From a virus (Duplodnaviria; Caudoviricetes): DNA of 57,645 nt. The notes under the pieces are model-generated. The model worked only from the letters and a program-made list of their open reading frames with translations, did not search any database and was not told the origin of the DNA. A program made the translations under genes and the position numbers. Numbering within the stretch: the stretch's first letter is position 1; the number at the start of each line of letters is the position of its first letter. This document shows, piece after piece, positions 14,240 to 14,645 of this stretch. Location of the stretch: positions 1 to 57,645 of the IMG/VR virus record IMGVR_UViG_3300044541_000049; one strand, 5' to 3'.

Positions 14240-14645
14240 AAACCTCACGCGTCACGGCGTACCGCGTGAGTCGTGCTCGATCTTGAGGCCCCTGTGGGTA
14301 CGGCGTGCCGTCCCGAAGGATCTCGGCCGGATGGCACCGGGGATTGCCGACGATCGGTGGACACCCGTGGACTCGAACCACGGTCAGTGAAGCTGCGGCA
14401 ACCGTACTCACGTTTCCGTTGGCCCCTCTACGGGGCGTGTCCCGGTGCCCTGTCTCCCCGAGGGGAGACTTCGAGTCCGTGAGGACTCCGGCTTGAGGCC
14501 AACCGTGATCCGTTTACGGGCTCTTCACCCGATCGCGTGGTGGATCATTCCGGCACTCTTCCGACACAGGCAGGTCCGCCTAAGTTGAGTGCCACAGGGG
14601 CCTGTCATCTGCGAGCTTCGTGCGTGCTTGCATCTCGTGTCGCGG
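14240..14645 (-). ncRNA. Large structured RNA with embedded tRNA-like domain
   Basis: 12-bp long-range stem (14286-14297 / 14592-14603); 9-bp stem (14333-14341 / 14441-14449); several hairpins; T-arm CCGTGG-TTCGAGT-CCACGG. Confidence 0.6.

Follow-up and report, generated by a model that had tools for sequence, protein, structure and literature searches.

Genomic setting of the tRNA-rich spacer

The window analysed here is the whole stretch of 57,645 nt that makes up the IMG/VR record IMGVR_UViG_3300044541_000049, a member of the Caudoviricetes. The ends of this 57,645-bp viral record are direct terminal repeats and its G+C content is ~63–75%; the source is an uncultured, high-GC phage. The whole window contains 550 copies of the tetranucleotide GATC; base composition predicts 178 and dinucleotide frequencies 323. 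The region under study, positions 14240–14645, is surrounded by genes that are all carried by the minus strand, and minus is the strand relevant to it. The genes and tRNAs of the neighbourhood are the following:

19074–17353, minus strand: helicase gene
17205–15883, minus strand: PD-(D/E)XK exonuclease gene
1.65 kb between the exonuclease and SSB-like genes: tRNA-rich spacer without a large gene
15585–15519, minus strand: tRNA (RF00005)
~14826–14901, minus strand: tRNA (RF00005)
~14650–14721, minus strand: tRNA (RF00005), its 3' end adjoining block A (see below)
ending at 13645, minus strand: SSB-like gene (phrog_1911)
listed after the SSB-like gene, minus strand: WhiB-like gene and FtsK-like gene

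Positions 14240–14645 constitute the final 400 nt of the spacer, read from 14645 to 14240, and stand directly upstream of the minus-strand SSB-like gene, the leader of which they had been proposed to form. The tRNA T-arm consensus GGTTCRANYCC has five matches in the genome, all on the minus strand and within 14369–15540, where 0.8 would be expected by chance. Three of the five belong to RF00005 tRNAs, and the fifth (14369–14379) falls inside the region. Given this fifth match and the three tRNAs of the spacer, 14240–14645 is therefore the tail of the tRNA-rich spacer. No terminator-like site was found on the minus strand within 13600–16000. A sigma-70-type promoter within 14240–14645 was also considered and rejected, as a simple promoter scan had no match there; the sequence TTGACT-17-TAATGT (15858–15886), which has a single copy in the genome, scores under the threshold of that scan.

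Scans of IMG/VR with the protein, with protein alignments and with DNA patterns returned a single relative contig carrying the region. The comparisons reported below are with this one relative, a 59.6-kb IMG/VR contig, and covariation consequently rests on few changes. A 41.7-kb contig (run X4) displays a pattern of breaks like that of the relative. Pieces of 151–214 nt from runs X3 and X6 are identical to the window within 14001–14475, and the same or a near-identical phage has therefore been sequenced elsewhere. Searches of cultured phages gave no match for the region at the DNA level, with 14650–15900 matching only a tRNA, and none for the SSB-like protein, and a metagenome scan yielded two distant loci only (30–33% identity); scans of genomes returned nothing. 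Matches to the exonuclease in cultured phages, which infect Streptomyces or are other actinophages, reach at most 33% identity; the cultured relatives are distant.

Alignment over the entire spacer indicates that the two phages have the array in common. Its upstream part has several peculiarities. A non-coding leader of ~260 nt (15590–15886, minus strand) behind TTGACT-17-TAATGT shares 96–100% identity with the relative, more than any flanking gene; ARAGORN at a relaxed threshold places a tRNA-like unit inside it (~15731–15800), and Rfam has no match for it. The array tRNAs (15519–15585, 14826–14901 and 14650–14721) have odd anticodon arms, with 4-letter anticodons assigned to two of them by ARAGORN. 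The tRNA at 14650–14721 possesses an 8-nt anticodon loop (ARAGORN 'gaca'), and the one at 15519–15585 equals the copy of the relative save that the entire anticodon arm is swapped. A tRNA cassette of 176 nt (14648–14825, minus strand) that contains one tRNA, 14650–14721, is present in the window and missing in the relative; both of its ends are located directly 3' of a tRNA CCA end. Within the RNA array, an 87-aa ORF (15282–15545, minus strand) is clearly coding by its composition (GC 0.85 at third positions; spread between codon phases 0.42) and has a hydrophobic core; it is missing in the relative and matches no family in Pfam or PHROG.

For the SSB-like gene (13645–14229, minus strand), the longest ORF begins at 14229. 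The first 9–12 residues of this ORF are missing in nine of ten homologues (one being a C-terminal fragment), five homologues begin at a Met aligned with residue 10, and the upstream ATG runs into a stop in the relative, as read from its sequence. The gene probably starts at the ATG at 14202, which is preceded by GAGG at a spacing of 5 nt. Identity to the protein is 58–79% for nine of its homologues. No Pfam family matches it, and by sequence it has no relative of solved structure. A structure model (mean pLDDT 66.8) produced weak matches (E at least 0.011), the top-ranked ones being mostly replication proteins that contain OB folds (Stn1, MCM, RPA), and the homologues have in common an acidic C-terminal tail, ...D-(N/D)-P-F-A. 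'SSB-like' should accordingly be read as a label only, and a weak one.

Conserved blocks and the tRNA-like element

Comparison with the relative divides the region into conserved blocks and variable stretches, which contain the following features (5' to 3', all on the minus strand):

14649–14553: block A, a conserved spacer of 97 nt directly 3' of the tRNA 14650–14721; 89/97 identical to the relative
14592–14603: 5' arm of a 12-bp stem with partner 14286–14297; phage-specific, 6/12 pairs in the relative
14553–14592: irregular hairpin of 40 nt with 14 pairs, in block A; 38/40 identical
between blocks A and B: variable stretch; 66/160 identical
14502–14514: invariant 13-mer within this variable stretch; 13/13 identical
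14452–14488: two GC-rich hairpins (14452–14469 and 14473–14488); position kept, sequence not
14356–14442: non-decoding tRNA-like element, with acceptor stem 14437–14442/14359–14364 and T-arm 14365–14383, followed by ACC
14392–14344: block B; 45/49 identical
14344–14358: conserved trailer 3' of the tRNA-like element, part of block B
between blocks B and C: variable stretch; 22/58 identical
14335–14343/14289–14296: local linker helix with a variable loop, spanning 14289–14343
14285–14230: block C; 53/56 identical
14244–14270: 8-bp hairpin in block C, in the leader of the SSB-like gene; 8/8 pairs kept
14200–14211: signals at which the SSB-like gene probably begins (GAGG and, after 5 nt, ATG at 14202)

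The blocks are 92–95% identical between the two phages, the stretches separating them 38–41%, and the flanking coding DNA 74–86%. Short common motifs follow one another in the same order inside the variable parts, which are therefore best read as diverged homologous sequence between blocks that are constrained. The region had been described as devoid of a convincing ORF, and this is borne out: GC content by codon phase spreads by 0.13, compared with 0.39–0.47 in three flanking genes. A small ORF or hidden gene was rejected on the same measure, and a 1-nt indel in block A breaks all frames there. Four one-sided changes in kept helices leave the bases paired only as minus-strand G·U.

Block A has one copy in the genome; repeated copies of blocks A and C, as well as antisense targets for the blocks elsewhere in the genome, were looked for and rejected. 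A 151-nt contig (run X2) covering 14539–14639 with 14 differences represents a further variant of this block. In the window the outer helix of the 40-nt hairpin has a pair probability of 0.81, in the relative one of 0.96. The single one-sided change of this hairpin (U·G to C-G) preserves the pair on the minus strand only, and the hairpin alone is of ordinary stability (z = −0.3 and −0.9). Another hairpin of block A is perfect in the relative; in the window it has an A·C mismatch on the minus strand that would be G·U on the plus strand. In block C, the one change in the 8-bp hairpin (U-A to U·G) fits the minus strand only. The two central GC-rich hairpins have z = −2.65 in the window (3/200 shuffles), and at the same place in the relative, just 5' of the tRNA-like element, there is one unrelated 12-bp hairpin (z = −3.23; 1/200). 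The RNAalifold consensus of the linker helix, built with the one relative, comprises seven pairs, two with both-sided changes, one with a one-sided change and four unchanged, which is consistent with a conserved, covarying local helix.

A tRNA-like domain had been predicted in the region. Its T-arm match (14369–14379) is canonical and the element folded alone adopts a four-arm cloverleaf-like shape (z = −2.2); the 9-bp stem supposed to enclose it is not kept in the relative. The element has a 6-bp acceptor stem, a 6-bp T-stem with a canonical T-loop and a 3' ACC, so that a GGTTCRANYCC T-arm stands beside a paired acceptor stem as in canonical tRNAs (RF00005). Unlike these, it lacks a 7-nt anticodon loop in its folds, and its D-like hairpin, judged by its letters, lacks the GG for the tRNA elbow. 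The 45/49 identical part comprises the T-arm, the 3' strand of the acceptor and the trailer, while the body has been swapped out; the 5' acceptor strand is found in both phages at differing distances from the identical T-arm, and the element as a whole is 87 nt long in the window but ~123 nt long in the relative. It retains the acceptor/T-arm half of a tRNA only and cannot decode. An IMG/VR search with a free-stem pattern plus the trailer matched the one relative and no other.

Rfam 15, run at gathering score and at E ≤ 10 over 14150–15950 (1.8 kb), returned nothing for 14240–14645. When RF00005 was applied at E ≤ 10 to 136 nt (14325–14460), no tRNA was matched, and Rfam gave only a 17-nt fragment of the T-arm. 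ARAGORN with default settings called neither a tRNA nor a tmRNA in the region; at relaxed thresholds it does call the element, with inconsistent models in the two phages, and its calls of permuted tmRNAs at a relaxed threshold likewise disagree between them. A canonical tRNA, for which an RF00005 score of at least 29 bits or a default ARAGORN call would be required, is not indicated by these results, and the folds show no anticodon arm with a 7-nt loop. A tmRNA was rejected, the sole RF00023 match being an 8.4-bit fragment elsewhere. By family models the region is not a member of GOLLD, ROOL, tRNA or tmRNA.

Two alternative partners are available to the invariant 13-mer: 14542–14547, over 6 bp, and the 5' half of the T-arm (14374–14386), over 13 bp ('anti-T'). 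The 13-mer and both partners are invariant in the relative. The duplex with the T-arm amounts to −20.9 kcal/mol in the window and −24.1 kcal/mol in the relative, values reached by 0.15% and 0.05% of shuffles, respectively; the anti-T helix of the relative is longer by virtue of one both-sided and one one-sided change. Within a 209-nt sub-region, the predicted anti-T and tRNA-like folds have energies of −96.7 vs −87.9 kcal/mol in the window and −87.7 vs −86.6 kcal/mol in the relative. In the ensemble of the relative the T-arm has a probability of 0.12 and the anti-T helix one of 0.01, and the thermodynamic models disagree between the two phages. The anti-T pairing may act as a switch or may be left over from duplication of a T-arm.

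If it were a switch, the leader would alternate between pairing of the 13-mer with 14542–14547 and with the T-arm, toggling the tRNA-like fold together with processing or with expression of the SSB-like gene. Complementarity that is significant in both phages, an anti-T fold at least as stable as the tRNA-like fold, a helix lengthened by a both-sided change and the invariance of the three partners all point in this direction. However, no ligand, protein or signal is known for such a switch, Rfam riboswitch and T-box models have no match at E ≤ 10 (14150–15950), the complementarity could stem from duplication of a T-arm, and the anti-T helix is barely populated in the relative. We regard a conformational switch as unlikely.

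Duplication is also at the heart of a different explanation, namely that the region is decaying tRNA debris, i.e., functionless remnants of duplicated units, with the near-identical blocks reflecting recent recombination between two phages and not selection. tRNA cassettes are indeed precisely gained or lost at this locus, as exemplified by the 176-nt unit present in the window only; a second repeat resembling CCACCA plus the trailer occurs at 14521–14543, and the letters of the 13-mer resemble the 3' half of the T-arm. Nevertheless, invariant islands such as the 13-mer and block B, set within stretches of ~40% identity in which the order of motifs is kept, fit selection better than several separate exchanges, and the compensatory changes in the linker helix argue against debris as well. 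This explanation is improbable, and we prefer to view the region as a chain of separately conserved RNA modules.

Long-range pairings

The original prediction envisaged one large closed RNA of about 400 nt, with a tRNA-like domain, a pseudoknot and an architecture reminiscent of GOLLD. All pairings on which it was based are present in the window. The closing stem (14286–14297/14592–14603) has 12/12 pairs and the second stem (14333–14341/14441–14449) 9/9; the pseudoknot pairing (14254–14263/14297–14306) has 9 of 10 and the alternative partner (14329–14337/14305–14313) 8 of 9, and the three hairpins (14452–14469, 14473–14488 and 14244–14270) are real in the sequence of the window. The minimum-free-energy fold has the same architecture, with ensemble pair probabilities of ~1.0 for the closing stem and 0.74 for the 9-bp stem.

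Chance was estimated from 2000 dinucleotide shuffles of 421 nt, a perfect 12-bp stem appearing in 12 of them and a 9-bp stem in 782. The genome amounts to ~137 such windows, among which one 12-bp stem or so would be expected; the closing stem is thus unusual locally, not genome-wide. For the whole-region fold (421 nt), z is −2.88 when the minus strand is folded and −2.28 for the plus strand. The minus-strand value is not outside the range of 13 equally long coding controls taken from this genome (sd 1.5 around a mean z of −0.65), of which four had z ≤ −2.0 and one −2.84. The pairings exist; the ensemble is not clearly beyond background.

Conservation of most of these pairings is poor. In aligned columns of the relative, 6/12 pairs of the closing stem, 4/9 of the 9-bp stem, 4/10 of the pseudoknot and 1/9 of the alternative partner can still form, and the central hairpins 14452–14469 and 14473–14488 keep 3/7 and 3/6. 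Since the alignment is weak around the long stems, the best duplex between homologous arm regions was also compared with shuffles in an alignment-free manner. For the arms of the closing stem the energy was −28.9 kcal/mol in the window, a value attained by 0.3% of shuffles, and −18.0 kcal/mol in the relative, attained by 18%. The whole homologue of the relative folds no better than shuffles (z = −0.62). With the long stems not kept and this z value, the large closed architecture is a trait of a single sequence. Furthermore, the arms of the linker helix are the 3' arms of the 9-bp and 12-bp stems; these strands form a conserved local helix, and the long stems therefore compete with that fold.

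GOLLD and ROOL RNAs are described as being encoded near phage tRNA islands, with many GOLLD members exceeding 800 nt and tRNAs sometimes lying inside GOLLD (bioRxiv 10.1101/2024.12.08.627333). The region has in common with GOLLD (RF01998) and ROOL (RF03087) only that it is phage-encoded and near tRNA genes. Unlike them, it matches neither model at E ≤ 10, it is, with ~400 nt, about half the length of GOLLD, and its closed multi-helix fold is not conserved in the relative. Despite the high pair probabilities, the agreement of the minimum-free-energy fold and the rarity of the 12-bp stem among shuffles, a single GOLLD- or ROOL-like RNA is thus very unlikely: its stems and pseudoknot are lost in the sole relative, its stability in the window is within the range of coding controls, Rfam has no match at E ≤ 10, and the 3' arms of both stems build a local helix instead.

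Least probable of all is that the region functions as DNA and not as RNA, as an attachment site, an origin or a protein-binding array: its blocks are conserved in primary sequence, replication genes surround it, and it includes a tRNA 3' half, as is typical of attP cores, but tyrosine and serine recombinases (PF00589, PF00239) were not found in the genome and none of the 185,579 species genomes scanned contained the T-arm-plus-acceptor pattern, which led us to reject an attP core from a host tRNA 3' end, the density of GATC is ordinary (6 per 421 nt vs a genome mean of 4.0, sd 2.0), which led us to reject a GATC cluster or origin, and the one-sided changes favour G·U on one strand.

A putative processing signal at the tail of a proposed tRNA operon

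With moderate confidence, we propose that a minus-strand operon of tRNAs and tRNA-like units has 14240–14645 as its non-coding 3' tail, and that this tail carries a processing signal resembling the t-elements of plant mitochondria. It would be organized as separately conserved modules and not as a single closed RNA. The anatomy, the pattern of conservation and the strand are established by the comparison, and co-transcription, cleavage and any regulation are inferred. From 5' to 3', the modules would be the 97-nt spacer with its 40-nt hairpin; a short helix followed by stable hairpins free in sequence; the tRNA-like element; the covarying linker helix; and a conserved hairpin ~40 nt upstream of the probable ribosome-binding site. 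One transcript would extend from the array into the SSB-like gene, with no recognisable terminator on the way, and host RNase P and RNase Z would cut it at the tRNAs and at the tRNA-like element. Cleavage would free a spacer RNA of ~200 nt (14649–14443) with its 3' end just past the stable hairpins, and the mRNA of the SSB-like gene would receive a defined 5' end near 14355. The element terminates 154 nt 5' of the probable start codon of that gene. Pairing of the 13-mer with the T-arm may modulate the cleavage.

Several observations count against this explanation. Over the 209 nt modelled, the anti-T fold is favoured energetically above the tRNA-like one, and the T-arm is sparsely populated in the ensemble of the relative. 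The D-like hairpin has no elbow GG, the mismatched hairpin of block A would suit the plus strand better, and the covariation comes from few changes in one relative. The 46 nt with which block A begins are 43/46 identical between the two phages and without a structure or function that we could name.

In plant mitochondria, tRNA-like elements bearing GGTTCRANYCC, the t-elements, are described as RNase P and RNase Z signals at mRNA ends (Forner et al. 2007, PMC1920247). The processing role that we infer for the phage element follows the logic of the t-elements, which carry the same T-arm motif (PMC1920247). The resemblance to the t-elements of that account (PMC1920247) comprises a non-canonical cloverleaf with the GGTTCRANYCC T-arm and an acceptor stem, a position at an mRNA border, and a polycistronic transcript, which in the phage is a presumed one. 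Unlike t-elements, however, the element belongs to a phage of high-GC bacteria and not to an organelle, and stands at the end of a tRNA array; its body is swapped between close relatives, and a conserved 13-mer can mask its T-arm. The tRNA cluster of phage T4 also encodes stable non-tRNA RNAs (species 1 and 2, RNA C and D), which are co-transcribed with the tRNAs and freed by tRNA-processing enzymes. To our knowledge, these RNAs have no known function. The likeness to them is a descriptive one, and both the host and the type of phage differ from those considered here.

A bolder form of the proposal would have the 97-nt spacer and the tRNA-like element constitute a phage small-RNA unit, in which a ~200-nt RNA is excised by host tRNA-processing enzymes and its release, along with maturation of the SSB-like mRNA, is gated by the 13-mer switching between the T-arm and the anti-T-arm state. 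We consider this form doubtful.

As a claim for a new GOLLD-like giant RNA, the prediction fails. Block A and the 13-mer deserve the most attention within the region. Should the element prove to be a processing signal, 'tRNA punctuation' as practised in organelles would reach a phage of high-GC bacteria. In that case, non-decoding tRNA-shaped pieces in phage arrays would serve as cut sites and as scaffolds for other RNAs, and the 97-nt conserved spacer would be a candidate phage small RNA.
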